From: an uncultured Thermoplasmata archaeon
Lineage (GTDB): Archaea; Thermoplasmatota; Thermoplasmata; RBG-16-68-12
Direction: 5' to 3'
Assembly: GCA_963768855.1 (NCBI GenBank)
Contig: CAVYJM010000012.1
Location: forward strand, 29,451-93,450
Length of the DNA: 64,000 nt
A program made the translations under genes and the position numbers. This document shows positions 12,838 to 59,339 of the stretch, piece after piece. The notes below the pieces were generated by a model. That model worked only from the letters and a program-made list of their open reading frames with translations, made no database searches and was not told the origin of the DNA. Position 1 is the stretch's first letter, and each line of letters opens with the position of its first letter.

Positions 12838-12867
12838 TTCTCGCGGGCGGCAAACCGGGCCACAAGC

Positions 12868-27679: not shown

Positions 27680-27687
27680 GGTGGGTC

Positions 27688-28998
27688 ATGGAAATCGAGA
27701 AGGTCAAGGAGAAGGTGATGGAGGGCCGGCCGGGCTTCACCCGGCAGTACGGGCCGTCCCGCTCGGACCACCAGCCGGGAATCCCCTTCTTCCCCCAGGA
27801 GATCACCCGCGACGTGGTCGTCTCCTTCCTGCTCATCGCGATCCTCTTCTTCCTGACGGCCGCCGTCGTGCCCGCCCTGGGGCCGCCGCGGGCGGAGAAC
27901 CTCTCCGAGCTCATCGTGCCGGACTGGTACCTCCTGTTCTCCTGGGGCCTCCTGAAGATCGGCGACATCTTCCCGAGCTTCATCCTCGGAGCGGGGACGC
28001 CCCTCGAGACCCAGTTCAACGCGGCGTTCTGGGGGGACATCCTCAGCGGCATCCCGGTCATCTTCCTCCTGGTCCTGCCGTTCCTGGATCGCGGCCGCGA
28101 GGCGCGTCCCGCGAAGGCACCGTTCCGGTCCGCCCTCGGGATCTCCTTCCTGCTCGTCTGGACGTTCTCCGCCTCCCTGTACGCAATCCGCGAGGTCATC
28201 GAGCAGCGGTGGCAGAGCCCGAACGGGGCGACCCTGTTCCCGGACGACGCCCTGAAATGGCTCTTCGTCCTGCCCGCCGTCCTGGCCTTCTTCGCGACCT
28301 ACATCGCGCTGCGGCGCCTCGGGTTCCAGCCGATGCGCAAGTGGCTTGTGCCTGCGACGGTCCTGCCTTTCCTGGTCGTGGCGGCGCAGTCCCTCCTCAT
28401 CCTGTTCGTGCCCGGCTGGCTCGGCCCGGAGGTCATGCCGTACTGGCTTCAGCTCGCGATCGGCCTGCTCATCCTGTGCGCCGCGACCGGGGCGACCGCC
28501 CTTGCGGTCCTCGTCCTCCCCGAATCGACCGCGCGGCGCGTCGTGCATTGGGTCGGCGGGCTGACCCTGCTGGCCTTCGTCGGCTATCTGGTCGGCCTCT
28601 ACTACACGAGCTACCTCGGATACATGTGGGTCGCCACGGTCCTCGACCCGAACTTCAACACGCTCATCCTGCTCCCCGGGTTCGCGGTCGTCACGGCGTG
28701 GTTCGGCCTGCGGCGGCCGTACAGCTCCTACGAGTACCTGCTCAATGAGTGCTACCAGTGCGGCAAGTGCCACACGGTCTGCCCCGTCACGAAGGTGGAG
28801 GACGACGCACTCGGCGGCCTGAACCTCGTCTACAACAGCTTCAAGAAGCAGCACGACGGCGTCCCACTCTGGACGTGCCTCGCGTGCGACGCGTGTAGCG
28901 CGGTGTGCCCGCTCGACATCAAGTACAGCGACTACATCCTCGAGGAACGTTCGAAGGTCCACGCCCGGGCGGCGGCGGACGGAGGTGAACCGAAATGA
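27688..28998 (+). CDS. fusion protein: cytochrome b C-terminal (subunit IV-like) region + additional TM helices + C-terminal 2x[4Fe-4S] ferredoxin domain
   Basis: From ATG 27688. PDWYLLFSWGLLK is the PDWY-type motif of cyt b C-terminal domains. More hydrophobic helices follow, then CYQCGKCHTVCPV ... CLACDACSAVCPLDIK. Confidence 0.7.
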   Translation: MEIEKVKEKVMEGRPGFTRQYGPSRSDHQPGIPFFPQEITRDVVVSFLLIAILFFLTAAVVPALGPPRAENLSELIVPDWYLLFSWGLLKIGDIFPSFILGAGTPLETQFNAAFWGDILSGIPVIFLLVLPFLDRGREARPAKAPFRSALGISFLLVWTFSASLYAIREVIEQRWQSPNGATLFPDDALKWLFVLPAVLAFFATYIALRRLGFQPMRKWLVPATVLPFLVVAAQSLLILFVPGWLGPEVMPYWLQLAIGLLILCAATGATALAVLVLPESTARRVVHWVGGLTLLAFVGYLVGLYYTSYLGYMWVATVLDPNFNTLILLPGFAVVTAWFGLRRPYSSYEYLLNECYQCGKCHTVCPVTKVEDDALGGLNLVYNSFKKQHDGVPLWTCLACDACSAVCPLDIKYSDYILEERSKVHARAAADGGEPK

Positions 28999-29969
28999 TG
29001 ACCACCGACGAGACGGAGTACGGGCCGGGGCGGACGATCCCCCACCCGATGCTCTTCCGCGTGCTGGACAGCGAGGCGGAGGACACGACGGTCCCGGAGA
29101 TCAAGGTCGAGCACAAGTCCGAGTTCGCGTACTACCCGGGCTGCGTCGACTACTACGACATGGAGATGCAGTTCTCCCACGCAAACTACGGGGACACGAA
29201 CCACGGGATCATCTTCGACTCCTCGATCAAGCTCCTGCGCGCGGTCGGGATCGAGCCGATGATCCTGGACCGGTCCTTCATGAAGTGCTGCGGCCACGAC
29301 CAGCTGTGGCAGGGCAAGGTCGACGTCTTCGAGCGGATGCGGGACTACAACACGAAGATCATCCAGATGCTCGGCGTGAAGACCTTCATCACCTCCTGCG
29401 CGGAGGGCTACCGGACGTTCAAGCTCGACTACAAGCTGCCCGGCGTCCGGGTGGTGCACATCACCCAGATCCTCTACGAGCGCGGCCTGCGCGTGCCGCC
29501 CCAGGGGGACAACGCCAAGAAGATCCGTGTGGCCTACCAGGACCCGTGCCGATCCTGCCGCCAGATGCCCGTGGACCCCGTCTACGAGGAGCCGCGGGAA
29601 CTCATCAAACGCGTCGACAACGCGGAGCTCGTCGAGCTCAAGACGTTCCGCGCGGACGCCCAGTGCTGCGGCGTCGCGCAGATGATGTACTGCAACGACA
29701 AGACGAAGGGCCTGACCCGCAAGCGGATGGACGAGGCCGACGAGGTCGGGGCGGACTACCTGCTGACGGCCTGTCCGAAATGCCTCACGCACTTCGGCTG
29801 CCTCCACCACGAGAACAAGTGGAAGCCCGGCGAGGAGCGCCAGAACTACCGGGTGATGGACATCACCCAGTTCCTCGCGGAGCGCCTCCCCGGCGACTAC
29901 CCGTCCGGCAGCAACGTCGACGCGAAGCGCAAGGAGCCGCCGCTTCCGGGCCGGAAGGGAGGCTGGTGA
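28995..29969 (+). CDS. CCG-domain (cysteine-rich) Fe-S protein, HdrB / HdrD C-terminal / GlcF C-terminal-like
   Basis: 324 aa. Two Cys-rich repeats with YPGC...CCGH and DPC..C...CCGV...CPKC. Its start overlaps the upstream stop (ATGA). Confidence 0.75.
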   Translation: MMTTDETEYGPGRTIPHPMLFRVLDSEAEDTTVPEIKVEHKSEFAYYPGCVDYYDMEMQFSHANYGDTNHGIIFDSSIKLLRAVGIEPMILDRSFMKCCGHDQLWQGKVDVFERMRDYNTKIIQMLGVKTFITSCAEGYRTFKLDYKLPGVRVVHITQILYERGLRVPPQGDNAKKIRVAYQDPCRSCRQMPVDPVYEEPRELIKRVDNAELVELKTFRADAQCCGVAQMMYCNDKTKGLTRKRMDEADEVGADYLLTACPKCLTHFGCLHHENKWKPGEERQNYRVMDITQFLAERLPGDYPSGSNVDAKRKEPPLPGRKGGW

Positions 29970-30580
29970 TGGCCGCTCCGGCCGCAACCGCCAACCCACC
30001 CCCCGCGACGCCTCCGCAGCCGGCGCCTCCGTCCAAGCCGGCGACACCCGCCCCCGCGGCGCCCCCGGCTCCTTCCGATCCGCTCGTGGCCTACTACCGT
30101 TCCGTGCGGCAGATGAACTGGGATCTCGCCAAGCAGCGTTTCAAGGACCTCGGCGTCAAGGCGCGGACCCAGGAGTACATCCGCGGCCGCGGCACGACCG
30201 CGATCGTGGACGACGAGGTCTGCATGGGCTGCATGCACTGCTTCGACAACTGCGCCTTCGAGGCGATCAGCGCGCTCGACCGGAAGTTCTCCCTGCCCGA
30301 CTACACGTACACGTCGCGCAAGGCGACGATCATCGTGGAGAACTGCGTCGGGTGCGAGAAATGCGCGATCGTCTGCCCCGTCGACGCGATCAACATGATC
30401 ACGAAGTTCGGCTTCGAGAGCCGCGAGGGCAAGGTCGTCGAGATCGAGAAGCCCGCTCCGCCGAAGCCCCTCGCGCCCCCCGCGCCGCCCGCCGCGCCCC
30501 CGGCGAAGCCCGCGGGCCCCCCGCAGGCCCCGCCCAAGCCCGCCCCGCCGCCGACCCCCGCCCCGAAGGGAGGCGCCTAG
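29969..30580 (+). CDS. 2x[4Fe-4S] ferredoxin-domain protein with Pro/Ala-rich N- and C-terminal tails
   Basis: The ATG at 29969 overlaps the upstream TGA by one base. CMGCMHCFDNC and CVGCEKCAIVCPVDAI. Tails consist of PPPATPPQPAPP and PAPPKPLAPPAPPAAPP. Confidence 0.7.
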   Translation: MAAPAATANPPPATPPQPAPPSKPATPAPAAPPAPSDPLVAYYRSVRQMNWDLAKQRFKDLGVKARTQEYIRGRGTTAIVDDEVCMGCMHCFDNCAFEAISALDRKFSLPDYTYTSRKATIIVENCVGCEKCAIVCPVDAINMITKFGFESREGKVVEIEKPAPPKPLAPPAPPAAPPAKPAGPPQAPPKPAPPPTPAPKGGA

Positions 30581-36679: not shown

Positions 36680-37057
36680 ATGGCACTCCTCGACACCTAC
36701 GGACCAATCGTCATTTTCGCCATCGTGGCTATCCTCTTCCCGCTGGGCACCTTCTTCGCGACCCGCCTGTTCCGCCCGACGAACCCGACCCCGCTCAAGG
36801 ACCTCGTGTACGAGTGCGGCGAGGTGCCGGAGGGCGAGGCCCAGATCGAGTTCCACTTCCAGTACTACATGTTCGCCTTGATCTTCCTGGTCTTCGACGT
36901 CGCAGCGATCTTCCTTCTTCTGTGGGCGTTCGCGTGGGGTGGGCTCCTCGATCCGGCCACCCCTCCCATCGCGCGGTATTCCCCGATCATGTTCCTGATC
37001 ATCATGTTCGTCGCCACGCAGTACGCGCTGAAGAAGGAAGAGGTCATCCACATATGA
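36680..37057 (+). CDS. nuoA: NADH-quinone oxidoreductase-like complex subunit A
   Basis: 125 aa. YECGE and [12 protein letters not shown] motifs. Confidence 0.9.
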
Positions 37058-37590
37058 GCACGGCCCCCGCGCGCGCTCCGGAGATGAACGACCGGCCCGT
37101 GGCGGGCATCGAGGTCGAGGTCCTCGCGGACCTGAAGCGGCAGTTCGGCGCCAAGCTGCTCGAGGCCCGCGTCGTGCGGCCGCTCGTCGTCGAGGTGGCG
37201 ATCGACCGGGCGGACCTCGTCGCCGTGTGCCAGCATCTCAAGGAGGCCGCGCACTTCGAGCACCTCGGATGCATCAGCGCGGTGGACTGGAAGGACCACT
37301 ACGAGAGCGTCTACCACCTGGAGAACTACTACAACGGGTGCGTCGTCCAGATCAACGCGCGGATCCCGCACGACGACCCGAAGATCGCCACGGTGTGTCC
37401 CCTCTGGAACGCCGCGAACTACCACGAGCGGGAGGCCTGGGACCTCATGGGCATCGTGTATGTGGGCCACCCGGACCTGAGGCGCATCTTGCTCCCGGAC
37501 GACTTCAAGTTCCACCCGCTGCGAAAGGACTTCCCTCAGGAGGTCGACCGGCAGTACATCAGCCGCCGCAAGCTCAAGGGAGGGAAGTGA
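37054..37590 (+). CDS. nuoC: Nuo-like complex subunit C
   Basis: From ATG 37054 (ATGA overlap with nuoA). [14 protein letters not shown] and HPLRKDFP motifs. No nuoB lies between A and C. Confidence 0.85.
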
Positions 37591-38685
37591 GTGCCCGAGT
37601 TCTGGATTAACATGGGGCCGCAGCACCCCATGACCCACGGGCTCTGGAATATGAAGGTCAAGGTCGACGGGGAGACGATCACGGACGCGAAACCGGAGAT
37701 CGGATACCTGCACCGCGGCGTCGAGAAGATCGCGGAGGTGCGGGAGTTCCAGAAGGTCATCGTGCTCACGGACCGCCTGTGCTACGTGTCCTCGATCACC
37801 TGGTCCCACGCGTACTGCCTGGCCGTAGAGAAGATGATGGGCGTGGAGGTGCCTGAACGGGGCCAGTACCTCCGGGTGATCTCCCTGGAGTTGCAGCGGA
37901 TCGCCTCGCACCTGATGTGGCTCGCGGCGTACGGCCCGGACCTCGGCCTGCTGACCGTCCTCCTCTGGTCCCTCCGCGAGCGGGAGCTGTTCCTCGACCT
38001 GATCCAGCTCATGTCCGGGATGCGCATGAACCAGAACTACCCGCGGATCGGCGGCGTGCGCAACGACATCCCGGACAACTTCGAGGCGATGTGCAAGCGC
38101 AGCATCACCCACTTCCTCGGGAAGCTGGACAAGGAGTACTCGGCGATGCTCCATGAGTCCAAGATCTTCCACATGCGCACGCAGGGCGTGGGGATGATCT
38201 CCGCCGCGGAGGCGATCAACTGGGGGGTCACGGGTCCGAACCTCCGTGCGTGCGGCGTGAATGTGGACGTGAGGCGCCTGGACCCCTACGAGGTCTACGA
38301 GGAGATGGACTTCGAGCCCCAGGTCTGGAAGGGACCCGACGCCGGCGACTCGTACTCCCGGTTCATCTGCCGGTTCAACGAGATGCGGGAATCGTGCAAG
38401 ATCGTCCTCCAGGCCCTCGCGAAGATGCCGAAGGAGGGTGCCTATCGGACCAAACCGCCGCGCCGCGCGGAGGGCGAGGGCTACGTCCGCACGGAGGATT
38501 CCCGCGGCGAGGCCCTATTTTACGTCCTGGGCGATGGCGACGACCGGCCGTACCGCGTCAAGATCCGCAGCCCGATCTTCTGCACGATGGCCGCGACGCC
38601 AATCATGCTCCGCGGTAACAAGCTCGCGGACAGCGTGGCGATCCTCGGGTCCATCGACGTCTGTGTGGGGGAGATCGACAAGTGA
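37591..38685 (+). CDS. nuoD: Nuo-like complex subunit D
   Basis: 364 aa. MGPQHPMTHG, GYLHRGVEK, RIASHLMWL and a C-terminal GEIDK. Confidence 0.9.
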   Translation: MPEFWINMGPQHPMTHGLWNMKVKVDGETITDAKPEIGYLHRGVEKIAEVREFQKVIVLTDRLCYVSSITWSHAYCLAVEKMMGVEVPERGQYLRVISLELQRIASHLMWLAAYGPDLGLLTVLLWSLRERELFLDLIQLMSGMRMNQNYPRIGGVRNDIPDNFEAMCKRSITHFLGKLDKEYSAMLHESKIFHMRTQGVGMISAAEAINWGVTGPNLRACGVNVDVRRLDPYEVYEEMDFEPQVWKGPDAGDSYSRFICRFNEMRESCKIVLQALAKMPKEGAYRTKPPRRAEGEGYVRTEDSRGEALFYVLGDGDDRPYRVKIRSPIFCTMAATPIMLRGNKLADSVAILGSIDVCVGEIDK

Positions 38686-39935
38686 GCGCCGCCCTGGTCC
38701 CGAGCCTCTTCGGGTCGTGCTACATCCTCACCGGGGCGATCATCTGGATCGTAGACCAGATTCTGTACGCGATCGGCGCCATCATTCCCCCGATCAACGA
38801 CCCGCTCCATGCGCTCGGTGGATGGCTCGCCTCGCCCGGGGTCCTGACGTTCCTGACGTGGTTCGTCATGGTCCTCGTGATGACGATCTGGGCCGTGCTC
38901 CTCAACCTGCTCACGATGATGTGGGTCGAACGCAAGGTGTACAGCCGGCTCCAGGACCGCTATGGGATCATGATCTCGATCTGGTCCCTTCCCCTGTGGC
39001 CCTTCAGCCGCCGCAAGGACCGGCCGACCCACAAGGGCTGGGGCTACCTGCAGAATGTCGCGGATGGGATGAAGCTCCTCCAGAAGGAGAACCTCGTGCC
39101 CGCCACCGCCGACTCGATGATGTTCAACGCGGCGCCTGCGTGGATCGCGGGGACCACACTCATGGTCTTCGCAGCCCTCCCCTGGTCGAGCGGGCTGTAC
39201 GTCGCGAACCTCGATCTGGGCATCCTCTTCATCCTCGCCGCGTTCTCCCTCGCCCCGCTCGGGATTCTGATCGCGGGATGGTCCGCGAACAATAAGTACA
39301 CCCTCGTCGGCGGTCTCCGGTCCGCCGCGATGCTCATGGCGTACGAGATCCCCCTTATCCTCGTCGTCATCGCGCTCGTCTTCACGACGGGCTCCCTCGA
39401 CCCGCAGGTGCTCGTCGCGCAGCAGGAGCGCGCCCTGGTGATCAACGGGGTGACGACGCCGCTGCCGGCGTGGAACCTGTTCGGGCCGCAGATTCTCGGG
39501 TTCCTCGTCTTCATGGTCGCCATCGTCGCCGAGATGGAACGGATCCCGTTCGACCTCCCTGAAGCGGATGCCGAGCTCGTCGAGGGCTGGACGACGGAGC
39601 TCAGCGGGATGCGCTTTGGTCTCGTCTTCGGCTTCAAGTGGCTGCGCATGATTGCCGGGGCGGGACTGATCTCGATCCTGTACCTCGGCGGCTGGAGCGG
39701 GCCCGTGTTCTACACCTTCTACATCGGGAACGTACCGATCCCGATCATCCCGGAGGAGGTCTGGTTCATGCTCCGCATCTACCTCCTTGGGATCTTCTTC
39801 GTCCTCCTCTCATGGTCGGTCCCGCGAGTCCGGATCGACCAGATCCTCGACATCGGATGGAAGCGGCTGATTCCCTTCGCCCTCCTCGCAATCATCGTCG
39901 CCGCCGCGGCGCGCGTCTTCGGCTACATGGGGTGA
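38682..39935 (+). CDS. nuoH: Nuo-like complex subunit H (with an insertion in the first loop)
   Basis: 417 aa. WVERKVYSRLQDRYG ... LQNVADGMKLLQKE, GWSANNKY, RSAAMLMAYE and PFDLPEADAELV motifs. Confidence 0.9.
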   Translation: MSAALVPSLFGSCYILTGAIIWIVDQILYAIGAIIPPINDPLHALGGWLASPGVLTFLTWFVMVLVMTIWAVLLNLLTMMWVERKVYSRLQDRYGIMISIWSLPLWPFSRRKDRPTHKGWGYLQNVADGMKLLQKENLVPATADSMMFNAAPAWIAGTTLMVFAALPWSSGLYVANLDLGILFILAAFSLAPLGILIAGWSANNKYTLVGGLRSAAMLMAYEIPLILVVIALVFTTGSLDPQVLVAQQERALVINGVTTPLPAWNLFGPQILGFLVFMVAIVAEMERIPFDLPEADAELVEGWTTELSGMRFGLVFGFKWLRMIAGAGLISILYLGGWSGPVFYTFYIGNVPIPIIPEEVWFMLRIYLLGIFFVLLSWSVPRVRIDQILDIGWKRLIPFALLAIIVAAAARVFGYMG

Positions 39936-39977
39936 TCCTCGTGAGAAAGTCTGCGAGCGCGGTGCTGGAGGGGTACG

Positions 39978-40259
39978 ATGGCGGTTGACTGGGAGGCCGT
40001 CGCCTTCGTCGTCCTGAGTGGGTTCGAGATCCTCTTCTCGATCCTCCTCGTTACGAGCAAGCGGCTGGTCCGTGCGGCTTTCTGGCTCGCGGCGACCCTG
40101 ATCACGATCGGCGGGATCTACCTCCTGTTCCGCGCCGAATTCGTCTTCCTGATCCAAATCCTCGTCTACGCCGGGGCCGTCCCTCTCCTGTTCGCTTTCG
40201 GTATCATGCTCACGCGCCGCAAGATCATGGAGGAGCCGGGTATGGAGGGGAATCAGTGA
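39978..40259 (+). CDS. nuoJ: Nuo-like complex subunit J, N-terminal part (split nuoJ)
   Basis: 93 aa. AEFVFLIQILVYAGAVPLLFAFGIML is the NuoJ core. Confidence 0.8.
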   Translation: MAVDWEAVAFVVLSGFEILFSILLVTSKRLVRAAFWLAATLITIGGIYLLFRAEFVFLIQILVYAGAVPLLFAFGIMLTRRKIMEEPGMEGNQ

Positions 40260-40522
40260 TTACACAGCGACAGGCGCTCGCCGTCGCCGCGGTCGCGGCC
40301 CTCTTCCTCGTCATGGCAGTCTCCTTCGTCGGCGTGCCCTGGCCGACGACACAGCATGAGATTCCGATCGTCAACACGACATCGCCCTCGGGGAACGCCC
40401 TTGCGAACAATCTCTTCCAATCCTACGCCGTCGCGCTGATCCTGATCGGCATCATCCTCGCCGCCGCGATGGTCGGAGGCGTGTACCTCGCGAAGATGGA
40501 AGGAGGGAAGCTGGGTCCATGA
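40256..40522 (+). CDS. Nuo-like complex subunit J, C-terminal part (split nuoJ)
   Basis: 88 aa. Its start overlaps the upstream stop. The C-terminal helix ILIGIILAAAMVGGVYLAK is typical of the NuoJ end. Confidence 0.65.
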   Translation: MITQRQALAVAAVAALFLVMAVSFVGVPWPTTQHEIPIVNTTSPSGNALANNLFQSYAVALILIGIILAAAMVGGVYLAKMEGGKLGP

Positions 40523-40821
40523 TCCCGCTCGAGTGGGAGCTCGTCCTGTCCGCGCTCCTGTTCAGCATCGGCCTCTACGGGGTCCTCGCCCGGAAGAACG
40601 CGATCATGGTCCTCATGTCCCTGGAAATCGTGATCAACGCGGCGCTCCTGAACTTCGTCGCGTTCAGCTCCTACTCGAACGACGCGAGCGGCCAGGTCTT
40701 CGCCCTCCTGGGCATCGCGGTCGCCGCGGCGGACGCCGCGATCGGCCTCGCGATTTTCCTCTCCATCTACCAGACGCACGGGACCGTCGACATGGACCGC
40801 GTGAGGTTCTTGAGGTGGTAG
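40519..40821 (+). CDS. nuoK: Nuo-like complex subunit K
   Basis: 100 aa. LFSIGLYGVLARKNAIMVLMSLEI and the conserved Glu residues. Confidence 0.9.
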   Translation: MIPLEWELVLSALLFSIGLYGVLARKNAIMVLMSLEIVINAALLNFVAFSSYSNDASGQVFALLGIAVAAADAAIGLAIFLSIYQTHGTVDMDRVRFLRW

Positions 40822-40981
40822 GACGGCGGACTTCTCCTATGTCTGGATCATCCTACTGGCACCGTTCGTCTCGTTCTTCCTCTCGGGTCTGATCGGCCGC
40901 CGGACCCCGCAGGGCGGCGGGTACATCGCGGTCGGCGGCATCCTCGTCTCCTTCGTCGTCTCCCTCATCCTGTTCGTCCAG

Positions 40982-42943
40982 GTGCTCCTGGCGGGCGCCC
41001 TCGGCGGCAACTTCACCCCCGTGACGGTCGACGGCTACGTGTGGCTCCCCGGTTTCAACGCCGCCACCGGGTTCGCGTCCACGAACATCCACATCTCGCT
41101 CCTTATCGACGATCTGAGCGCGCTGATGCTCGTCCTGGTCTCCTTCCTGTGCCTTCTGATCTTCATCTACTCCCTCGGCTACATGCACGCCGAGGAGGGC
41201 AAGCCGCGCTACTACGCGGAGGTCAGCCTGTTCTCCATGGGCATGCTGGGGACGGTCAGCGCGGACAACTTCCTCCAGCTCCTGGTCTTCTGGGAGATCA
41301 TGGGCCTGTGTTCGTACCTCCTCATCGGCTTCTGGTACCACAAGCCCGAGGCGGCGAAGGCCGCGAAGAAGGCCTTCCTCGTCACCCGCGTGGGCGACGT
41401 CCTGTTCCTGATTGGAGTCCTCGTCATCTGGAACGTCTTCGGCACCCTGAGCTTCCTGGACATCCAGCAGAAGATCCCGAGCCTTTGGCAGAGCGGCGTG
41501 CTGTCGCCCCAGCTGCTTACGCTCATCCCCCTCCTCCTTTTCGGCGGCGCGGTCGGGAAGTCCGCCCAGTTCCCGCTGCATGCCTGGCTGCCCGATGCGA
41601 TGGAGGGCCCCACCACGGTGAGCGCCCTCATCCACGCCGCGACGATGGTCAAGGCGGGCGTCTACCTGACCGCCCGGGCGTTCATCTTCCTGGTCCCTCT
41701 CTCGACCGCCACGATCCACGTCACGCCACCGTGGACGGCGATCTACGTGATCGCCGGGATCGGCGGCTTCACCGCCATCTTCGCCGCGACGATGGCCGTG
41801 GTCAACTATGACATCAAGCGCGTCCTCGCGTTCTCGACGATCTCCCAGCTCGCCTACATGTTCCTGGGGCTTGGGGCGGGCGCGTACATCCTGAACGTGA
41901 GCCTCGCGCAGGGCGAGGCGGATTCGGTCGGGTACAGTGCGGCGCTATACCATCTCTTCAACCATGCGTTCTTCAAGGCGCTCCTCTTCCTCTGCGCGGG
42001 CAGCGTGATCCATGCGGTCGGGACGAACGATCTGCGGAAGATGGGTGGCCTCCGGAAGCACATGCCCATCACCTCCTGGACCATGCTCTTCGGCTGCCTC
42101 GCGCTCGCGGGGATCGTCCCGTTCAGCGGGTTCTTCTCGAAGGGGGAGATCCTCTCCGCGACCTTCGAGGCGGGCTCAACCAACTTCCTGTTCCTGGTCC
42201 TCTGGATCTTCGGGACGATCACCGCCTTCCTGACTGCCTTCTACGCGTTCCGTCTGTGGTTCATGACCTTCCGCGGGGAGTACCGCGGCGAAGGCCACCC
42301 GCACGAGTCCCCGCGGACGATGACGGTCCCGCTGATCATCCTCGGCGGCTTCACGCTCATCTCCGGGCTCTCCGCGTACGCGATGGGCGGGTTCGGCAAC
42401 CTCATCTTCTTCGACACGCCGCACTCCCAGCTCCCGCTCGTTGGCGTGCCCCTGCTCGACTACGCCCTCGAGGGGATTTCCCTCGGCGCCGCGCTCGCGG
42501 GGGTCGCGCTCGCGTGGGCCGTGTACGACACGAAGCGGATTCCCGCGGAGCGGTTCACCGCCTCCCGCGGCGGCGCGTTCATCCACAAGATGCTTTCGAA
42601 CCGCTATTGGATCGACAACGTCTACGATGCCTTCGGCGCCAAGGCGTACTGGGGCTTCGCGAAGGCGTTCGACTGGTTCGACCGGCGCGTGATCGACGGC
42701 ATCGTGAACGCGGTCGGGAGGGGAGGCCTAGCGGCCGCCGCGGGATCGGACTACTTCGACCGCAAGGTCGTCGACGGGGCCGTCAACCTGGTGAGCAAGG
42801 AGACCATCCGCTCCGGGATGCGGCTCCGCCAGAGGCAGACGGGCCAGGTGCAGAGCTACGCGTGGGTCGTCGTGTTCGGGATCGCTCTCGTGATCGCGCT
42901 CATCTTCGGGGTCGGCTGGTACCTCCGGCTGAGGGGGGGATGA
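40982..42943 (+). CDS. nuoL: Nuo-like complex subunit L (5' end probably extends to about 40826; lateral helix carries a 26-residue duplication)
   Basis: QFPLHAWLPDAMEGPTTVSALIHAATMVKAGVYL. The same frame upstream of GTG 40982 encodes a typical NuoL first helix (ADFSYVWIILLAPFVSFFLSGLIGRR) but has no ATG/GTG/TTG. Confidence 0.85.
   Translation: MLLAGALGGNFTPVTVDGYVWLPGFNAATGFASTNIHISLLIDDLSALMLVLVSFLCLLIFIYSLGYMHAEEGKPRYYAEVSLFSMGMLGTVSADNFLQLLVFWEIMGLCSYLLIGFWYHKPEAAKAAKKAFLVTRVGDVLFLIGVLVIWNVFGTLSFLDIQQKIPSLWQSGVLSPQLLTLIPLLLFGGAVGKSAQFPLHAWLPDAMEGPTTVSALIHAATMVKAGVYLTARAFIFLVPLSTATIHVTPPWTAIYVIAGIGGFTAIFAATMAVVNYDIKRVLAFSTISQLAYMFLGLGAGAYILNVSLAQGEADSVGYSAALYHLFNHAFFKALLFLCAGSVIHAVGTNDLRKMGGLRKHMPITSWTMLFGCLALAGIVPFSGFFSKGEILSATFEAGSTNFLFLVLWIFGTITAFLTAFYAFRLWFMTFRGEYRGEGHPHESPRTMTVPLIILGGFTLISGLSAYAMGGFGNLIFFDTPHSQLPLVGVPLLDYALEGISLGAALAGVALAWAVYDTKRIPAERFTASRGGAFIHKMLSNRYWIDNVYDAFGAKAYWGFAKAFDWFDRRVIDGIVNAVGRGGLAAAAGSDYFDRKVVDGAVNLVSKETIRSGMRLRQRQTGQVQSYAWVVVFGIALVIALIFGVGWYLRLRGG
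42671..42826 (+). repeat. in-frame tandem duplication within the NuoL lateral helix (period 78 nt / 26 aa)
   Basis: DWFDRRVIDGIVNAV(GRGGLAAAAGS) is followed by DYFDRKVVDGAVNLV(SKETIRSG...). Other NuoL sequences I recall carry a single D..IDG.VN unit. Confidence 0.6.
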
Positions 42944-42944
42944 G

Positions 42945-44561
42945 ATGAGCTACTGGCTCACGATCCTCCTGCTCATCCCGTTCATCGGGTTCATCGTCAC
43001 CTGGGCCGTCGGCAGGACCCAGCGGATCTCCAAGTGGGTCGCGCTCGCGTTCAGCTTGGCGCAGCTCACTCTGCTCACGCTCATCCTCGTGTCCTTCTGG
43101 ACGCCGGCCAGCTCGTGGATCGAGATGCTCCTAGGCCCGAGGATTGCCGACCCCACGAATGGGATCCCGGGAGGCACCCAGTCGGCGTTCTCCTACTTCG
43201 AGAAGGCGAACTGGGTGCCGCAGATCGGGATGAACTACATCCTGGGGTTCGACGGGCTGAGCGTGCCGCTCGCCTGGCTCACGCCGTTGCTGACCACCCT
43301 GGCGATCGTCTTCCACTGGGACGAGGAGCACCGCCCGCGGGAGTTCTTCGCGCTCCTCCTCTTCCTGGAGATGTCCCTCACGGGGGTCTTCATGGCCCTC
43401 GACTTCTTCCTGTTCTTCATCTTCTGGGAGCTCGTCCTGATCCCGATGTTCTTCCTGATCGGGATCTGGGGCGGGCCGAATCGCCGGTACGCCGCCCTGA
43501 AGTTCCTCGTGTACACCCACGTGGCTAGCGTGATCATGCTCCTCTCCATCTTCGCTCTGTACTGGACGTACAGCGGCACGGCGAACGCGGCCGTCTACGG
43601 GACGAGCACGAACACGTTCGACATGACGGTCTTCCTCGAGGCCGCACGGCGCCACGCCGTGAATGGCGCGCTCGCCTACATCCCCCTTGCCACGCAGATC
43701 CCCGTCATGCTCGGGTTCCTCTTCGGGTTCATCGTCAAGCTTCCCTCCTTCCCGTTTCACACCTGGCTGCCGGACGCCCACGTCGAGGCGCCCACGGGCG
43801 GGTCCGTCCTCCTGGCGGGCGTCCTCCTGAAGATGGGCGGCTACGGGATCTTCCGGATCGACCTGGGGATGTTCCCGGATGCGATGCGGGAACTGTGGTG
43901 GGTCCTCGCGGCGCTCGGCATCATCTCGATGGTCTACGCGGCGTTCGTCTGCCTGCACCAGACCGACCTGAAACGACTCATCGCATACTCGTCCGTGGGC
44001 CACATGGGCTTCGTGACCTTGGGCGCCGCCACGCTGACGACGATCGGCGTGGAGGGTGGCATCTTCCAGATGTTCAACCACGGACTGATCACCGCAGTCC
44101 TGTTCATGCTCGCGGGGTCCGTGAAGCACGCGACGGGCACGCGGGAGATTCCGAAGCTGCAAGGCCTCTCGAAGGTGATGCCCCAGTTCTCGCTCATCCT
44201 GATGATTGGGTTCTTCGCCTCTCTGGGCCTGCCGGGACTGAACTCCTTCTGGTCCGAGTTCATGGTCTTCCTCGGGACGTACAGCTCGCAGTCGATGGGG
44301 GCGACGAGGGCCCTCGTCCTCGTGCCCATGGTCTCGATCGTGGTGACCGCGGCTTATTACGTCTACGCGATGCAGCGGATCCTGTTCGGGGACGCGCCGA
44401 AGGAGTTCGAGCACGTCCACGACCTGATGCCGTGGGAGCGCTTTTCCTACGTCATCCTGGTGCTGCTCATCTTCGCGGTCGGCCTCCTGCCGTTTGCGTT
44501 CCTCTCCCTCATTCAGGACTATGCGATCCATGGCCTCCCGTGGCTGATGGGGGCGGTGTGA
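42945..44561 (+). CDS. nuoM: Nuo-like complex subunit M (copy 1)
   Basis: 538 aa. FPFHTWLPDAHVEAPTGGSVLLAGVLLKMGGYG. Confidence 0.9.
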   Translation: MSYWLTILLLIPFIGFIVTWAVGRTQRISKWVALAFSLAQLTLLTLILVSFWTPASSWIEMLLGPRIADPTNGIPGGTQSAFSYFEKANWVPQIGMNYILGFDGLSVPLAWLTPLLTTLAIVFHWDEEHRPREFFALLLFLEMSLTGVFMALDFFLFFIFWELVLIPMFFLIGIWGGPNRRYAALKFLVYTHVASVIMLLSIFALYWTYSGTANAAVYGTSTNTFDMTVFLEAARRHAVNGALAYIPLATQIPVMLGFLFGFIVKLPSFPFHTWLPDAHVEAPTGGSVLLAGVLLKMGGYGIFRIDLGMFPDAMRELWWVLAALGIISMVYAAFVCLHQTDLKRLIAYSSVGHMGFVTLGAATLTTIGVEGGIFQMFNHGLITAVLFMLAGSVKHATGTREIPKLQGLSKVMPQFSLILMIGFFASLGLPGLNSFWSEFMVFLGTYSSQSMGATRALVLVPMVSIVVTAAYYVYAMQRILFGDAPKEFEHVHDLMPWERFSYVILVLLIFAVGLLPFAFLSLIQDYAIHGLPWLMGAV

Positions 44562-44562
44562 G

Positions 44563-46101
44563 ATGGAGATCACATTCCCCCTCCTGACATACATCATCTT
44601 CATCCCCCTGGTGGGCGCCGTCCTGACCTACGCCCTGGGGCTCTCTGTGCGGGTGGCGAAATGGATTGCCCTCGCCTCGAGCCTGGTCACGCTCGCCTTC
44701 GGATCGTTGCTCCTGGCCGGATTCGTGCTCCCGTCCGACGTGGTGCTCAGCCAGCAGACGATCGGCGGGCAGTCGTACTTCGCGGGGGAGCAGCTCGTAT
44801 GGGTCCCCCAGCTCAACGTGCACTACATCGTGGGCGCCGACGAGCTGTCCGCGGTCCTCATCTTCCTGAACACGCTCCTGACGCCCCTCGCGCTCGCCTT
44901 CAGCTGGGACGAGCGCCACCGCGTCCCGGAGTTCTACGCGATGTTCCTCCTCCTGGAGTGCACGGTGAACGGGATCTTCCTCTCCCTCGACCTGTTCCAG
45001 TTCATTGTCTTCTGGGAGGTCCAGCTCGTCCCGATGTACTTCATCATCGCGGTCTGGGGCGGCCCGCGCCGCAAGTACGCGGCGATGAAGTTCTTCATGT
45101 ACACGTTCCTCGCCAGTCTCCCGCTCCTCGTGTCCATCTTCGCATTTTACTTCTACAGCGGCACGTTCGACATGCGGCAGATCATCGCGACGAGCCCCAT
45201 CCCGCCCGGGACGATTGGCGACCTGATGTTCGTCGCGATGCTCGTGGCCTTCGGCACGAAGCTGCCGACGTTCCCGCTGCACACCTGGCTCCCGGACGCC
45301 CACGTCGAGGCGCCGACCGGCGGCTCCGTGATCCTGGCGGGGATCCTGCTGAAACTCGGAGGCTACGGGCTCATCCGCTTTAACGTCGAGATGATCCCGA
45401 AGGCCGCCGCGGACATGTGGTGGCTCCTCGCCGCGGTCGGGGTGATCTCGATCCTCTACGGGGCCATCGTGTGCCTCGTCCAGAACGACCTCAAACGGAT
45501 GGTCGCGTTCTCGAGCGTGAGCCACATGGGCTTCGTGACGCTCGGGATCGCCGCGGGCGTCTACGGTTTCGCCTACGGCCCCGCGAACCTCCAGGCGGGG
45601 GCCGCCCTGGGTTTCAGCGGCGCGGTCTTCCAGCTCTTCGCCCACGGCCTCGTGTCGGCGGCCCTCTTCATGGTCGCCGGGTCCATCGGCCACAAGATCG
45701 GGACCCGGAACATCTCGGAGCTCGGCGGCATCGCGAAGGTCGCGCCGCGAACGGCGACGTTCATGATGGTGGCCTTCATGGCCTCCCTGGGACTGCCAGG
45801 GCTCGTCGGATTCGCCGCGGAGTACGGCGTGTTCGTCGGCGTCTACGCGGCGTTCGGCCTCTGGGTGTTCGTCCCGATCCTGACCGTCGTGTTCACGGCC
45901 GCGTACTACATCTTCGCGATGCAGCGCAGCCTCTTCGGCCCCCTGAACCCGAAGTGGGAGAAGTATCCTGACATGGAGAAGCACGAGACCCTCCCGCTCT
46001 CCGTCCTCGCCGTGACGTTCGCGATCTTCGGCATCGTCCCGATCGTCATCTACCAGCTCATCACGCCGTGGGCCACGCATCTGCTGGCAGGGCTGTTCTA
46101 G
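44563..46101 (+). CDS. nuoM: Nuo-like complex subunit M (copy 2)
   Basis: 512 aa. FPLHTWLPDAHVEAPTGGSVILAGILLKLGGYG, an M-type rather than N-type signature. Confidence 0.85.
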   Translation: MEITFPLLTYIIFIPLVGAVLTYALGLSVRVAKWIALASSLVTLAFGSLLLAGFVLPSDVVLSQQTIGGQSYFAGEQLVWVPQLNVHYIVGADELSAVLIFLNTLLTPLALAFSWDERHRVPEFYAMFLLLECTVNGIFLSLDLFQFIVFWEVQLVPMYFIIAVWGGPRRKYAAMKFFMYTFLASLPLLVSIFAFYFYSGTFDMRQIIATSPIPPGTIGDLMFVAMLVAFGTKLPTFPLHTWLPDAHVEAPTGGSVILAGILLKLGGYGLIRFNVEMIPKAAADMWWLLAAVGVISILYGAIVCLVQNDLKRMVAFSSVSHMGFVTLGIAAGVYGFAYGPANLQAGAALGFSGAVFQLFAHGLVSAALFMVAGSIGHKIGTRNISELGGIAKVAPRTATFMMVAFMASLGLPGLVGFAAEYGVFVGVYAAFGLWVFVPILTVVFTAAYYIFAMQRSLFGPLNPKWEKYPDMEKHETLPLSVLAVTFAIFGIVPIVIYQLITPWATHLLAGLF

Positions 46102-46112
46102 GGGGCGAGAAG

Positions 46113-47702
46113 ATGGGGAACTATCTGGTCTTCCTGCCCGAGACGATCCTTGTGGTCGTCGGCTTCGCATCGATCGTCCTCGGTTTCGCATGGGGGAAGC
46201 GCCCCGTGTACCTCTGGGCGATGGCCCTCGCCGGGACCCTCGTCTCCCTCGTGATTACGCTCGACATGATGGGCGTCGGGCTCTCCGGTCTGCTCGGCCT
46301 TCAGCTCTGGCCGGCGCCGATCGGGCTGCAAGGGGACTTCACGGGGGAGCTCAAGCTCCGGGTCGACGCGTTCGCTCTCCTGTTCCACCTGGTCTTCCTG
46401 CTGATTGGGTTCCTGGCCATCCTGGCCTCCCGGGGCTTCATCCACGCAGACGAGCCGCACCAGGGCGAGTACTACGGGCTCATGCTCCTCGCGATCGTCG
46501 GCATGATGTTCACGGCCGCGGCGACCGACCTGTTCGTCCTCTTCCTCGCGTTCGAGACCTCGAGCATGAGCACCTTCGCGCTCGTGGCCTTCCGCAAGAA
46601 GGACAAGGAGTCCACGGAGGCCGCGGTGAAGTTCTTCATCATCGGGGCGATCAGTTCGTCGATCATCCTCTTCGGGATCTCCCTGATCTACGGCGTCTCG
46701 GGCTCGACCGCGATCGGACCTACTCTCGACCTCACGAAGCTCCAGATGGGACTCACGATCTCCGCGAATCCCGGGATGGAGCCGCCCCTCATCGTTGCGC
46801 TCGTCCTGCTCGTCGCGGGCTTCGGCTTCAAGGCCGCGGTGGTCCCCTTCCACATGTGGGCGCCCGACGTGTACCAGGGCTCGCCCACCACGATCAGCAC
46901 CTTCCTGGCCGCGGGCTCGAAGATGGTCGGCGTCGTCGCCCTCTTCCGGGTCTTCCTCATCGGGCTCCTGTCGATCCAGATCGACTGGGTGATCGCGATC
47001 GCGGTCCTGGCCATCGCCACGCAGACCGTCGGCAACGTGCTCGCGATCCCGCAGCGGAGCGTGAAGCGCATGCTCGCGTACTCGAGCATCGCCCAGGTGG
47101 GGTACATCCTCATCGCGATCCCGGTCGGGGCCGTCGCGCTGAGCGCGGGCAGCTCGGACCCGGCCGTCTCGGCGGCAGCCATCACCGTGGCGACCGCCGC
47201 CCTCATCGGCGCGGGCTTCCACGTGCTGACGTACGCCGCGATGAAGGGGGGCGCCTTCCTCGTCGTCGCGGGGACCCAGTCGCGCGGCATCGCGGACGAC
47301 ATGGACGCCTACCGCGGTCTGAGCCGCCGCATGCCCTTCATGGCCGCTGCGATGACCATCTTCCTGCTGAGCCTAGCGGGCATCCCGCCGCTCGCGGGAT
47401 TCTTCAGCAAGTTCTTCCTCTTCTCGAGTGCGATCAGCGCGATGCAGTTCAGCCCGTGGTACGTCGTGCTGGCGATCTCCGGGGTCCTGAACAGCGCGCT
47501 CTCCATGTACTACTACGCGCGGGTCATCTGGTACATGTACATCCTGGAGCCTGAGGGGGAGGTCGTCAAGATGGAGGCACCGCGGTCGATCTCGGCGGGC
47601 GTCTTCATCTCTTTGGGGATCGTGTTCCTGACCGCTCCGCTCGCGTTCTGGATCCTGAACTTCCTGAACATCGCCGCGCGGTCGTTCTTCGGCTTCCCGT
47701 GA
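46113..47702 (+). CDS. nuoN: Nuo-like complex subunit N
   Basis: From ATG 46113. PFHMWAPDVYQGSPTTISTFLAAGSKMVG is the N-type signature. Confidence 0.9.
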   Translation: MGNYLVFLPETILVVVGFASIVLGFAWGKRPVYLWAMALAGTLVSLVITLDMMGVGLSGLLGLQLWPAPIGLQGDFTGELKLRVDAFALLFHLVFLLIGFLAILASRGFIHADEPHQGEYYGLMLLAIVGMMFTAAATDLFVLFLAFETSSMSTFALVAFRKKDKESTEAAVKFFIIGAISSSIILFGISLIYGVSGSTAIGPTLDLTKLQMGLTISANPGMEPPLIVALVLLVAGFGFKAAVVPFHMWAPDVYQGSPTTISTFLAAGSKMVGVVALFRVFLIGLLSIQIDWVIAIAVLAIATQTVGNVLAIPQRSVKRMLAYSSIAQVGYILIAIPVGAVALSAGSSDPAVSAAAITVATAALIGAGFHVLTYAAMKGGAFLVVAGTQSRGIADDMDAYRGLSRRMPFMAAAMTIFLLSLAGIPPLAGFFSKFFLFSSAISAMQFSPWYVVLAISGVLNSALSMYYYARVIWYMYILEPEGEVVKMEAPRSISAGVFISLGIVFLTAPLAFWILNFLNIAARSFFGFP

Positions 47703-54043: not shown

Positions 54044-54084
54044 TAGGAAGGGGAAGGTGAACCCGCGTCACGCGAGGTGACCGT

Positions 54085-54972
54085 GTGCCCGAGGAGCTAG
54101 ACACGACCCAGGTCCCGCCCCACATCATGGCGGCCATGCGCGAGCGCATGAAGATGGCGCAGCGCATGGGGAAGATCAAGCACAAGATCGTGGTCATGTC
54201 CGGGAAGGGCGGCGTTGGAAAATCGACCTGTGCAGCGAACTTGGCGTGTGTTCTCGCGACAGAAGGCAGAGTCGGCCTCGTCGACGCCGACGTCACGGGC
54301 CCGGACATCGCCATGATCATGGGCGTCGAGGACGCCGAGGTCGTCTCGAAGCAGGTCGGCAGTGAGACCCTCATGGAGCCCGTCGTCGGACCCAAAGGCG
54401 TCAAGGTCATCTCGATGGCCCACCTGATCGACCGCGACACGGCGGTCGTATGGCGCGGGCCGCTCAAGATCAAGGCGCTCAAACAAATGCTCTCGGACGT
54501 GAACTGGGGAGAGCTCGACTACCTGGTCATCGACCTGCCGCCGGGGACGAGCGACGAGCCGCTGAGCATCGCGCAGGAGATTCCCGACGCGGACGGAGCC
54601 GTCGTCGTCACGACGCCGCAGGAGGTCTCCCTCCTAGACGTCCGCAAGAGCATCAGCTTCGCGAAGGCCGTCAACCTCCCGATCCTCGGGGTCGTCGAGA
54701 ACATGAGCGGCCTCGTGTGCCCGCACTGCGGCAAGGAGATCGATGTGTTCAAGATCGGCGGCGGCGAGGCGGCCGCGAAGGAGCTCGGCCTCCCCTTCCT
54801 GGGGCGGATCCCGCTCGATCCTCGGATCGTCGTGGGCGGGGATGCCGGGAAGCCGTTCGTCCTCGAGCATCCTGATTCGCCGGCGGCGAAGGCTTTCCAG
54901 TCCGTGGTCGCAAGCCTGACGGCGCAGCTCAAGGAGCCCAAGCCGCGTCCGAGCGGCCCGCTCGCGAAGTGA
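54085..54972 (+). CDS. Mrp/NBP35-family Fe-S cluster carrier ATPase (ApbC-like)
   Basis: Deviant Walker A SGKGGVGKST, DLPPGTSD and a CPHCG motif. Confidence 0.9.
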   Translation: MPEELDTTQVPPHIMAAMRERMKMAQRMGKIKHKIVVMSGKGGVGKSTCAANLACVLATEGRVGLVDADVTGPDIAMIMGVEDAEVVSKQVGSETLMEPVVGPKGVKVISMAHLIDRDTAVVWRGPLKIKALKQMLSDVNWGELDYLVIDLPPGTSDEPLSIAQEIPDADGAVVVTTPQEVSLLDVRKSISFAKAVNLPILGVVENMSGLVCPHCGKEIDVFKIGGGEAAAKELGLPFLGRIPLDPRIVVGGDAGKPFVLEHPDSPAAKAFQSVVASLTAQLKEPKPRPSGPLAK

Positions 54973-55395
54973 TCAGGTCCAGCGCTTGAGGACGGCCTCA
55001 ATCTGGGGACGCGGGAGCGCGCCCACGATCCCGTCCACGAGCTTCCCGTCCTTGAACACGAGCATCGTGGGGATCGACATGACCCCGTACCGCTCCGAGG
55101 TCCGGGCGTTCTCGTCCACGTTCAGCTTCCCGAGTCGCATCTTGCCCGCCTGGTCCTTCGCGATCGCCTCGAGGGTCGGGGAGACGCGCAGGCACGGGCC
55201 GCACCACGCGGCCCAGAAGTCGACGAGGATCACTCCGGCCTTCCGGACTTCTGCATCGAACGTCGCGTCCGTCAGGAGGACGGGCTTGCCCCCCGCGGGG
55301 GTGGGCGCGGCGACCCCGGGGGTCTTCGCGCCGCCCATGAGCTCCTGCAGCCGCCGTGCGCGAATCGCCTCGAGTTCCGCGTCAGGTTCGGCCAT
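54973..55395 (-). CDS. trxA: thioredoxin
   Basis: WAAWCGPC active site. 140 aa with an N-terminal extension. Confidence 0.85.
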   Translation of the reverse strand: MAEPDAELEAIRARRLQELMGGAKTPGVAAPTPAGGKPVLLTDATFDAEVRKAGVILVDFWAAWCGPCLRVSPTLEAIAKDQAGKMRLGKLNVDENARTSERYGVMSIPTMLVFKDGKLVDGIVGALPRPQIEAVLKRWT

Positions 55396-55442
55396 GATGA
55401 ATCGAGCCGGGCCGCGGAATAAAAGGGTTTGGTTCGCACGGC

Positions 55443-56603
55443 CTAAGCGGTGACCCGCGCGAAGTCCGGGAGCTCGGGCGCCATGGGTCCGAGGAGGGCA
55501 ACCTCTCGCCGGATCATGGAGAACTCTCGCTGCTGGAACGCGGAGGGATCCATCGGGATCAGGAGGATCGCGTCATGCAGGGCGACGATCTCGTTGAGGT
55601 CGTGGAGCAGCGCGAGGACGGAGCTGAAGTCGTTGTGCGCGATGAGGTACTCGAACCCGTCAAGGAGGACGACCGCGCTCTCTCCGACGGAGATGAAGTG
55701 CTCAATGGCCAGGGCGACCTTCTCGGGCGGTGAGGGCCGCACGGAGTTCTTCTCCGTGGCCACGCGGCTGAGCCACAGGATCGGCGTCTTCTCAAGGCCG
55801 TAGTCCTGCATGATCGTCTTGGGAGACCGGCGGCTGATGCACAGCCCCTGCGCCCCGTGCGTCACGAGGTCCCGGAAGATCTCGAAGCTCTGGGCCCCGT
55901 CTCGCTCGAGGATCGCATACGTCCGCGCGCGCTCGAGCTGGTAGGTCGGCGTGGTCTGGGACTGGGTCTCCGCCGCGGGGACGATGAGCTCCTGGAGGAA
56001 CGACTTCTCGCGGATGGCGAACGCGATGAGCCCGATCAGGGCCATCTCGACCACGAAGCCGGGCGCCCGCAGGTCGATCCCGTAGTTGGGCAGGACGATC
56101 TCGAACAGCAGCTCCCCGATTGCGAAGCCGCTGATCCCGAGGATGATCAGGTACGTGTCCCGCCGCACCTCAGGTCCCGCGTTCGTGCGCCGCATGTGCG
56201 TGATGAAGCGATAGGGGGCGTAGAGCGTCAGCGTCGCGACCGCCACGCCGTTGACGAAGAGGAAGTAGGGTTCGAAGCGGATCGTGATCAGCGGGTAGCT
56301 GGTCAGGTCGACCGTCTCCGGAGAAATGTAGATGGCCACAACGGCGAGGACCATGATGAAGACATAGAAGACGTAGGAGTTCGGGAACTCATCCGTCATG
56401 TACCTCATGAAGTCCCGGCGGGTCGTGATCTCCGGCGTCGTCGCGACGACGATGAACGCCCCGATCGTGATGCTGAACGCGTAGTCGAAGGTCGCCTGGA
56501 CCTTCTTGGAGAGCAGGATGCTGTTCGTCAGAGCGTTTGGATCGGCGATGCTCGGCTGGGTCAGATAGATCGAGATGAGTGTGTTCGAGATCACCGCGCA
56601 CAT
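55443..56603 (-). CDS. polytopic membrane protein with C-terminal DUF835-like cytoplasmic domain (5' end probably extends to about 56747)
   Basis: Several TM helices, then GLCISRRSP...ILWLSRV...AVVLLDGFEYLIAHNDF, as I remember for archaeal DUF835. In-frame TM-like sequence (NIVGYLSAISALFLSLLVVIAIL) lies upstream of ATG 56603 and is preceded by AGGAGG, but no canonical start is present. Confidence 0.55.
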   Translation of the reverse strand: MCAVISNTLISIYLTQPSIADPNALTNSILLSKKVQATFDYAFSITIGAFIVVATTPEITTRRDFMRYMTDEFPNSYVFYVFIMVLAVVAIYISPETVDLTSYPLITIRFEPYFLFVNGVAVATLTLYAPYRFITHMRRTNAGPEVRRDTYLIILGISGFAIGELLFEIVLPNYGIDLRAPGFVVEMALIGLIAFAIREKSFLQELIVPAAETQSQTTPTYQLERARTYAILERDGAQSFEIFRDLVTHGAQGLCISRRSPKTIMQDYGLEKTPILWLSRVATEKNSVRPSPPEKVALAIEHFISVGESAVVLLDGFEYLIAHNDFSSVLALLHDLNEIVALHDAILLIPMDPSAFQQREFSMIRREVALLGPMAPELPDFARVTA

Positions 56604-59338: not shown

Positions 59339-59339
59339 G

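Follow-up and report, generated by a model that had tools for sequence, protein, structure and literature searches.

The window analysed here (64,000 nucleotides of contig CAVYJM010000012.1, from an uncultured Thermoplasmata archaeon) carries a complex I-like (nuo) operon that lacks the genes for two iron-sulfur (Fe-S) subunits, nuoB and nuoI. We conclude that both genes very probably persist in this lineage as a two-gene unit unlinked from the operon, and that the locus represents a split complex I operon and not a new kind of enzyme. Because unlinked nuoB-nuoI pairs are found lineage-wide, we interpret the arrangement as an operon rearrangement, one that is unusual within Thermoplasmata.

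Open reading frames (ORFs) together with Pfam and NCBIfam matches place eleven tightly packed genes at window positions 36680-47702 (plus strand), in the order nuoA-C-D-H-J(N)-J(C)-K-L-M-M-N:

36680-37057, plus strand: nuoA, 125 aa; Pfam Oxidored_q4, E=2e-21
37054-37590, plus strand: nuoC, 178 aa; Pfam Complex1_30kDa, E=1e-40
37591-38685, plus strand: nuoD, 364 aa; Pfam Complex1_49kDa, E=2e-82
38682-39935, plus strand: nuoH, 417 aa; Pfam NADHdh, E=9e-89
39978-40259, plus strand: nuoJ, N-terminal half, 93 aa; Pfam Oxidored_q3, profile positions 2-67
40256-40522, plus strand: nuoJ, C-terminal half, 88 aa; Pfam Oxidored_q3, profile positions 74-146
40519-40821, plus strand: nuoK, 100 aa; Pfam Oxidored_q2, E=3e-29
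40823-42943, plus strand: nuoL, ~706 aa; Pfam Proton_antipo_N and Proton_antipo_M; start taken to be ACG 40823
42945-44561, plus strand: nuoM copy 1, 538 aa; best BLASTP match the NuoM of locus L006 (47% identity, vs 24-27% to NuoL and NuoN)
44563-46101, plus strand: nuoM copy 2, 512 aa; best BLASTP match the NuoM of L006 (46% identity), 44% identical to copy 1
46113-47702, plus strand: nuoN, 529 aa from ATG 46113; Pfam Proton_antipo_M; best match the NuoN of L006 (47% identity)

The stop codon of nuoA is overlapped by 4 nt by the ATG of nuoC (37054-37057), which leaves no nuoB between these genes, and the spacing of only 42 nt between nuoH and nuoJ (39936-39977) likewise leaves no nuoI there. 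Homologues of nuoA, C, D, H, J, K, L, M and N are thus co-encoded, with family matches nearly all above the curated cut-offs (for NuoD, 420 bits on NCBIfam NF004739 vs a cut-off of 360). Slightly below their cut-offs are NuoC on NCBIfam NuoC_fam (118.9 vs 122.45 bits) and the C-terminal half of nuoJ (31.7 vs 33.2 bits). The split of nuoJ is also seen in relatives with a canonical operon, such as L006.

Neither missing gene is encoded elsewhere in the window. A tblastn search of the whole 64 kb with the canonical NuoB of L006 returned no NuoB, and the corresponding search with NuoI returned only generic 4Fe-4S ferredoxin matches at 28.7-30.4 kb. A Pfam scan of ~60 window ORFs gave no matches to the Oxidored_q6, NuoE, NuoF or NuoG families; among these same ORFs, no NADH-oxidising module (NuoE, F and G) or FpoF was found near the operon. 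An earlier note made from the letters of the window had already described this gene order, the 4-nt overlap and the 42-nt gap, and had stated that no ORF in the window carries NuoB or TYKY-type motifs in the right context. The coordinates and family matches agree exactly with that description, and the searches bear out the absence.

Two candidate substitutes were considered and rejected. The ORF at 29969-30580, which encodes a 2x[4Fe-4S] protein, scores 33.6 bits on TIGR01971 vs a cut-off of 113 and belongs to a cytochrome b/HdrD-like gene cluster, both of which rule it out as a replacement for NuoI. An N-terminal extension of NuoH is ruled out as a surrogate for NuoB by its presence in canonical relatives.

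We compared the locus with those of related archaea, using one genome per GTDB species chosen by NuoD alignment and mapping Nuo proteins at each locus with tblastn. The NuoD homologues are proteins of Thermoplasmata metagenome-assembled genomes (MAGs), and among the genomes nearest at species level are the 'EA_' isolates from Angelo soil and genomes of the RBG_16_68_12 type. JBGPGA01 and CAZJIP01 are the nearest species representatives, and a NuoD identical to that of the window occurs in run ERR12035932; the one further contig returned with this identical NuoD is 5 kb long. The host belongs to the Ca. Angelarchaeales (RBG-16-68-12) group of Thermoplasmata, the order described by Diamond et al. 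2022. The order A-C-D-H-J-J-K without B or I is found at all 27 loci whose NuoD is 62-96% identical to that of the window (L008-L034), and also at L004. When the flanks of all loci of this clade were searched with canonical NuoB and NuoI, no NuoB was detected and the only further matches were generic ferredoxins. The canonical A-B-C-D-H-I-J order appears at L035 (NuoD 63% identity) and at ~45 more distant Thermoplasmata loci. A third arrangement is found in the group L036-L042, where nuoI is kept in the operon and nuoA-nuoB form an inverted, divergent pair ~1 kb upstream of nuoC. In L038, for example, the inverted genes occupy 7882-8813 on the minus strand and nuoC begins at 9553. The remaining order in this group is nuoC-D-H-I-J-J-K-L-M-M-N, and in L037 and L038 a small helix-turn-helix gene lies between the two halves.

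In a NuoD tree, built by quick neighbour-joining without support values, the loci lacking B and I group as a single clade, with the inverted-AB group as sister and L035 as the next branch. This grouping indicates that B and I were probably lost from the operon once, whereas the inverted nuoA-nuoB pair is a second, independent operon break in the lineage. Taken together, the three arrangements and their placement in the tree imply that gene order at the nuo locus is fluid in this part of Thermoplasmata.

A search with the NuoB of L035, the closest canonical relative, revealed a separate clade of NuoB proteins of 212-225 aa that are ~62% identical to any operonic NuoB compared. On 11 contigs (L088-L098) the gene for this NuoB is followed by a NuoI gene (248-300 aa), with the two overlapping at most loci. 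These contigs are up to 63 kb long, and in the flanks examined, up to 10 kb on each side, there is no other nuo gene. Both products are bona fide family members by score, with unlinked NuoB reaching 209 bits on NF005012 (cut-off 116) and unlinked NuoI 148 bits on TIGR01971 (cut-off 113). The CCxxE, GECxxCGG and PGCP motifs of NuoB are kept, and with them all four cysteines of cluster N2. NuoI has four CxxCxxCxxxCP motifs, the same number as operonic NuoI in L006. A C-terminal extension of ~30 aa (RGWI..TRGQLA..YTYE) distinguishes the unlinked NuoB from its operonic relatives (L088 10001-11438; L089 1167-2658).

The same neighbourhood surrounds the pair in independent samples. On its upstream side are a TFIIB gene and, in divergent orientation, the gene for a TrmB-family regulator. 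Downstream are two MetE-like (or luciferase-like) genes and genes for DUF2203, FeS_assembly_P (DUF59), a rubrerythrin-like protein, an HdrD-like Fer4+CCG protein and an A-type Fe-S carrier, followed by sufC-sufB-sufD. The FeS_assembly_P, rubrerythrin-like and HdrD-like genes are always present downstream of the pair (L088 10001-19298; L098 5349-11372; L093, L096, L097). The A-type carrier is seen in L088, L089, L093, L094 and L096, and sufCB(D) in L088 and L098, where the examined flank extends that far. In L098 the genes from the pair to the SUF genes are co-directional with gaps of <140 nt, and the stretch from nuoB to SUF may form one transcription unit. Between this neighbourhood and the window or the flanks of the clade operons there is no shared synteny, only paralogous HdrD-like matches of 27-30% identity; the pair is therefore unlikely to lie just beyond the end of the window.

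Ten links tie the pair to MAGs that carry the B/I-less operon. Two of them rest on contig prefixes: MAG JAIBJG01 has its operon on JAIBJG010000029 (L020) and its pair on JAIBJG010000076 (L095), and MAG CAYOUM01 has its operon on CAYOUM010000139 (L023) and its pair on CAYOUM010000010 (L096). For the other eight, the NCBI accessions of NuoD and unlinked NuoI are 80 to ~1,300 apart in one series and were taken to represent the same MAG:

NuoD HEY7588546 and unlinked NuoI HEY7587243 (DATBLI01; NuoD 90% identical to that of the window)
NuoD HYS71719 and unlinked NuoI HYS71453
NuoD MFQ5920094 and unlinked NuoI MFQ5920174 (NuoD contig is L031)
NuoD MFQ5908349 and unlinked NuoI MFQ5908754 (NuoD contig is L029)
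NuoD MEE8198408 and unlinked NuoI MEE8199400
NuoD MEE8233044 and unlinked NuoI MEE8232589
NuoD MEE9163918 and unlinked NuoI MEE9164108
NuoD MCJ2532233 and unlinked NuoI MCJ2532091

All four subclades of the B/I-less clade are represented among these links, the window's own included. Four further unlinked NuoB proteins were traced to their sources. P0148 and P0134 come from short contigs whose whole-genome shotgun (WGS) accessions, JAZHCF and JBFONG, match none of the clade's MAGs; P0270 and P0261 belong to MAGs JBHHZZ and CDLUQU, whose operon contigs are not among the loci compared.

The history of the pair follows that of the operon. In a NuoB tree the unlinked proteins form a monophyletic group whose sister comprises the NuoBs of L035 and the inverted-AB group (L036-L042), a branching pattern that parallels the NuoD tree. 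This congruence points to nuoB and nuoI having been inherited vertically and relocated once in an ancestor, rather than imported.

The quinone site in NuoD provides a separate indication that NuoB is retained. An ungapped HMMER alignment (2fug/4hea chain 4, with query residue 5 corresponding to chain residue 27) equates NuoD His16 and Tyr65 with His38 and Tyr87 of Thermus thermophilus Nqo4. These two residues and the GPQHPMTHG loop are invariant in 15 NuoD sequences from B/I-less loci and canonical relatives. Their invariance argues for an intact quinone site, which would require NuoB.

We propose that in the ancestor of the clade the genes for NuoB, with cluster N2, and NuoI, with its four 4Fe-4S motifs, left the operon and became an unlinked two-gene unit. 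The operon would supply the membrane arm together with NuoC, NuoD and NuoH, the pair would supply NuoB and NuoI, and the products of both loci would assemble into a normal A-B-C-D-H-I-J-K-L-M-M-N complex. From what is known of the family, electrons would pass, probably from reduced ferredoxin, through NuoI and then NuoB-N2 to quinone at the NuoD/NuoB/NuoH site, and this flow would drive proton pumping, to which one additional antiporter-like subunit would contribute. Diamond et al. 2022 (PMC9038741) proposed reduced ferredoxin as the donor in this order.

Several points weigh against this interpretation. Membership of a MAG rests on binning, and 8 of the 10 links assume that accessions within ~1,500 of one another share a submission or genome. 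The pair is known from genomes of clade relatives, and the 64 kb of the window's own genome that were examined do not contain it; that this genome also has a nuoB-nuoI pair is thus a presumption by analogy with those relatives. Likewise, we infer from sequence that NuoB and NuoI join the operon products in one complex. The trees that bear on relocation are of the quick neighbour-joining kind noted above.

The earlier note had left open whether the operon is split, with B and I located elsewhere, or whether the membrane arm with NuoC, D and H works with a different electron-input partner. It had called for a comparison of operon structure in related genomes and a check of the quinone-contacting residues of NuoD, and had added that canonical nuoB and nuoI elsewhere in the genome, in a context common to the lineage, would reduce the case to a simple rearrangement. 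The comparison shows the B/I-less order to be lineage-wide in 27 species-level relatives, with the canonical order further out; the residues are kept; and the MAGs of clade relatives that carry the operon hold the genes in just such a conserved context. Thus, the first alternative is supported and the case becomes one of rearrangement, whereas a different partner is not needed to account for a NuoD with invariant quinone residues and an unlinked NuoB with four N2 cysteines. The more radical form of that idea, in which NuoB and NuoI are dispensable and the membrane arm with NuoC, D and H has a non-homologous electron-input or partner module or acts as a redox-independent ion translocator, could draw on the absence of both genes from the operon and the 64-kb window, and on the ferredoxin-type and HdrD-like genes that lie beside cytochrome b 6-9 kb upstream. 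However, every subclade includes MAGs that combine the operon with a bona fide nuoB-nuoI pair, these pairs have no other obvious partner operon, the quinone-site His and Tyr of NuoD are invariant, and the nearby ferredoxin falls far short of the NuoI cut-off and is part of the order's complex III-like cluster. We consider dispensability less probable even than the acquisition of the pair by horizontal transfer, which is itself very unlikely.

Transfer of a pair that replaced operonic copies later deleted has a point in its favor: the ancestral A-B-C-D-H-I order separates B from I, so more than one rearrangement would be needed to join them, and a ready-made pair would be simpler. Nonetheless, unlinked NuoB has the closest canonical and inverted-AB relatives as its sister group, in agreement with the NuoD tree, and its divergence from the NuoB of L035 (~62-64% identity) matches that of NuoD (~63%). 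The four-motif NuoI is, moreover, common to neighbouring Thermoplasmata such as L006. It is also conceivable that the nuoB-nuoI contigs derive from other organisms that co-occur with Angelarchaeales and were binned with them by mistake, given that all links run through MAG bins or accession blocks and none is on one contig. This is the least credible of the alternatives. The ten links span several WGS or accession series and sample types, G+C agrees (62-67% at the pair loci vs 66% for the window), and the NuoB and NuoD phylogenies are congruent. The absence of other nuo genes from the examined flanks also means that the owner of the pair needs a B/I-less operon, and only this clade was found to have one. 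Relocation of the native genes to an unlinked pair accordingly remains the explanation that we favor.

A further question is whether the new location of the genes matters. Their siting at the start of a group of Fe-S biogenesis genes, with a TrmB-family regulator in control, might be functional rather than neutral, either because the cell makes or attaches B and I as a conditional module that responds to iron or oxygen or because the HdrD-like protein is a partner. We regard this as unlikely. On this reading, the HdrD-like protein could dock on the extended NuoI as an electron-input or electron-output partner, much as in the idea of Fpo-like complex plus HdrD for Methanomassiliicoccales, and the membrane module would exist in more than one functional state. 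More modestly, the constant placement of two Fe-S subunits beside SUF and carrier genes may be a small hint that complex I and cluster biogenesis are co-regulated.

The split carries a caution for annotation: completeness calls based on the operon would wrongly conclude that complex I in these widespread archaea of soil and sediment has no quinone-reducing Fe-S subunits. The present results fix the gene inventory of the Angelarchaeales respiratory chain, and they bear on whether these CuMMO-bearing archaea respire like ammonia oxidisers.

The antiporter-like subunits assign the enzyme to a class. The order L-M-M-N is found in every complete clade locus and also in L037 and L038, and L-M-N in canonical relatives. 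At two-nuoM loci the lateral helix of NuoL has a 26-aa insertion that duplicates FDRRVIDGxVN; the insertion is not seen in the single-nuoM loci L006, L040, L046 and L059, and it is present in L052 though only one nuoM was detected there. On this gene content, the window holds the main operon of a complex I-like enzyme of the 11-subunit type (Nuo/Fpo-like, without NuoEFG) and of the two-nuoM kind. A group 4 membrane-bound [NiFe] hydrogenase (Mbh/Ech type) was ruled out, as NuoD lacks the paired RxCGxC and DPCxxC motifs and has instead DRLCYVSS and IDVCVGEIDK, with one Cys each; its match to NiFeSe_Hases is weak (29.9 bits) and confined to the N-terminus. An Mrp-type cation/proton antiporter is ruled out by the presence of NuoA, C, D and H.

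NuoH shows a further insertion, at residues ~90-125, where ~20 aa (IMISIWSLPLWPFSRRKDRPTHKGWG) lie between the ERK..R.G and Q..ADG.KL motifs in the window's subclades. Sister groups and the deepest B/I-less subclade have a shorter version of it, and L006 has none.

Two start codons required revision. Translation of nuoN probably begins at ATG 46113 rather than at the listed GTG 46068. In the nuoL frame there is no ATG, GTG or TTG from the stop codon of nuoK (TAG 40819-40821) to 40982, the first canonical start, and the frame upstream of 40982 codes for the conserved first transmembrane helices. At the corresponding site relatives have GTG, ATG or CTG, and ACG is found in the window (40823), L002/L010, L023 and L025. 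Most likely, nuoL starts at ACG 40823 and not at 40982, which suggests either a near-cognate start or translational coupling to nuoK.

Other genes lie around the operon. An archaeal A-type ATPase operon occupies 16.4-24.8 kb on the minus strand, genes for TatA, TatC and a molybdopterin oxidoreductase are divergent from nuoA, and an ammonium transporter gene is also present in the window. At 26.9-30.6 kb, genes for cytochrome b, an HdrD-like (Fer4+CCG) protein and ferredoxin are clustered. This complex III-like cluster comprises:

26903-27679: cytochrome b, N-terminal part
27577-28998: ORF with a cytochrome b C-terminal domain and a 4Fe-4S dicluster
28995-29969: CCG-domain protein
29969-30580: 2x[4Fe-4S] ferredoxin

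Diamond et al. 2022 (PMC9038741) described complex III (with hdrD-like and rnfB-like genes), ATPase and complex I as co-located in the order, and the layout of the window, including the cluster at 26903-30580, matches their account. Directly upstream of cytochrome b, the ORFs 25159-25812 and 26111-26893 have no Pfam match at E<=0.01; their position alone would be consistent with the plastocyanin-like and Rieske-like proteins that have been reported from this locus in the order.

Several other genes in the window deserve mention. Two tandem genes for small GTPases of the Ras/Roc family lie at 12241-13468 (Pfam Ras, E=4e-30 and 8e-32). A gene for an Fe-S P-loop NTPase of the NUBPL/Mrp type (54061-54972; Pfam ParA PF10609, E=1e-95) adjoins a thioredoxin gene (54973-55572), and both genes are also present in L004, at most ~8 kb upstream of nuoA. 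The eukaryotic homologue of this NTPase, Ind1/NUBPL, is an assembly factor for the Fe-S clusters of complex I. Genes for a polyprenyl synthetase and geranylgeranyl-reductase-family proteins lie ~10 kb downstream of nuoN (58334-60440, 62999-64000). In L006 a polyprenyl synthetase, a UbiE-like methyltransferase and a geranylgeranyl-reductase-family gene occur at most ~0.5 kb downstream of nuoN, with one CBS-domain gene between. The recurrence of such genes near nuoN suggests a conserved tie to quinone or lipid synthesis.

The closest known system is the complex I of Angelarchaeales, from the same lineage, with EA_ isolates among the closest loci. Diamond et al. 2022 (ISME J, PMC9038741) reported this complex to be without E, F and G and to have a duplicated M, so the complex itself is already published for the order. 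Their main text and the supplements searched make no mention of nuoB or nuoI outside the operon, the supplements having no nuoB or nuoI entries, and no relevant account of B/I-less nuo operons in Thermoplasmatota came up in a literature search. That B and I are unlinked and consistently sited beside Fe-S biogenesis genes thus appears to be unreported, a minor novelty of organisation.

The Fpo-like or Nuo-like 11-subunit complex of Methanomassiliicoccales and other Thermoplasmata (for example L006 and L040-L087) belongs to the same NuoD family, at 56-60% identity, and shares with the window clade the split nuoJ, the four-motif NuoI and the lack of NuoEFG. It differs, as in L006, in its canonical A-B-C-D-H-I-J-J-K-L-M-N order, its single nuoM and the absence of the helix insertion. 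A two-nuoM ('2M') complex I is reportedly found in Nitrospira and ammonia-oxidising archaea, with a lengthened NuoL lateral helix said to be its signature. Like the window operon, it has two adjacent nuoM paralogues and a NuoL lateral-helix insertion of ~26 aa. The '2M' operons are said to keep nuoB and nuoI in place, whereas these genes are unlinked in the window clade.

Finally, NDH-1 of cyanobacteria and chloroplasts has an 11-subunit core without NuoEFG whose genes are spread over several transcription units (ndhCKJ, ndhAIGE, ndhH and others), and of the solved structures its NdhH scores best against the window NuoD. The partition of the genes is different there: K(B) remains with C(A) and J(C), I remains with A(H), and there is no B-I pair; we know of no association of NDH-1 genes with SUF genes. 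Nonetheless, the scattered NDH-1 genes show that a normal complex can be built from core genes that are unlinked.

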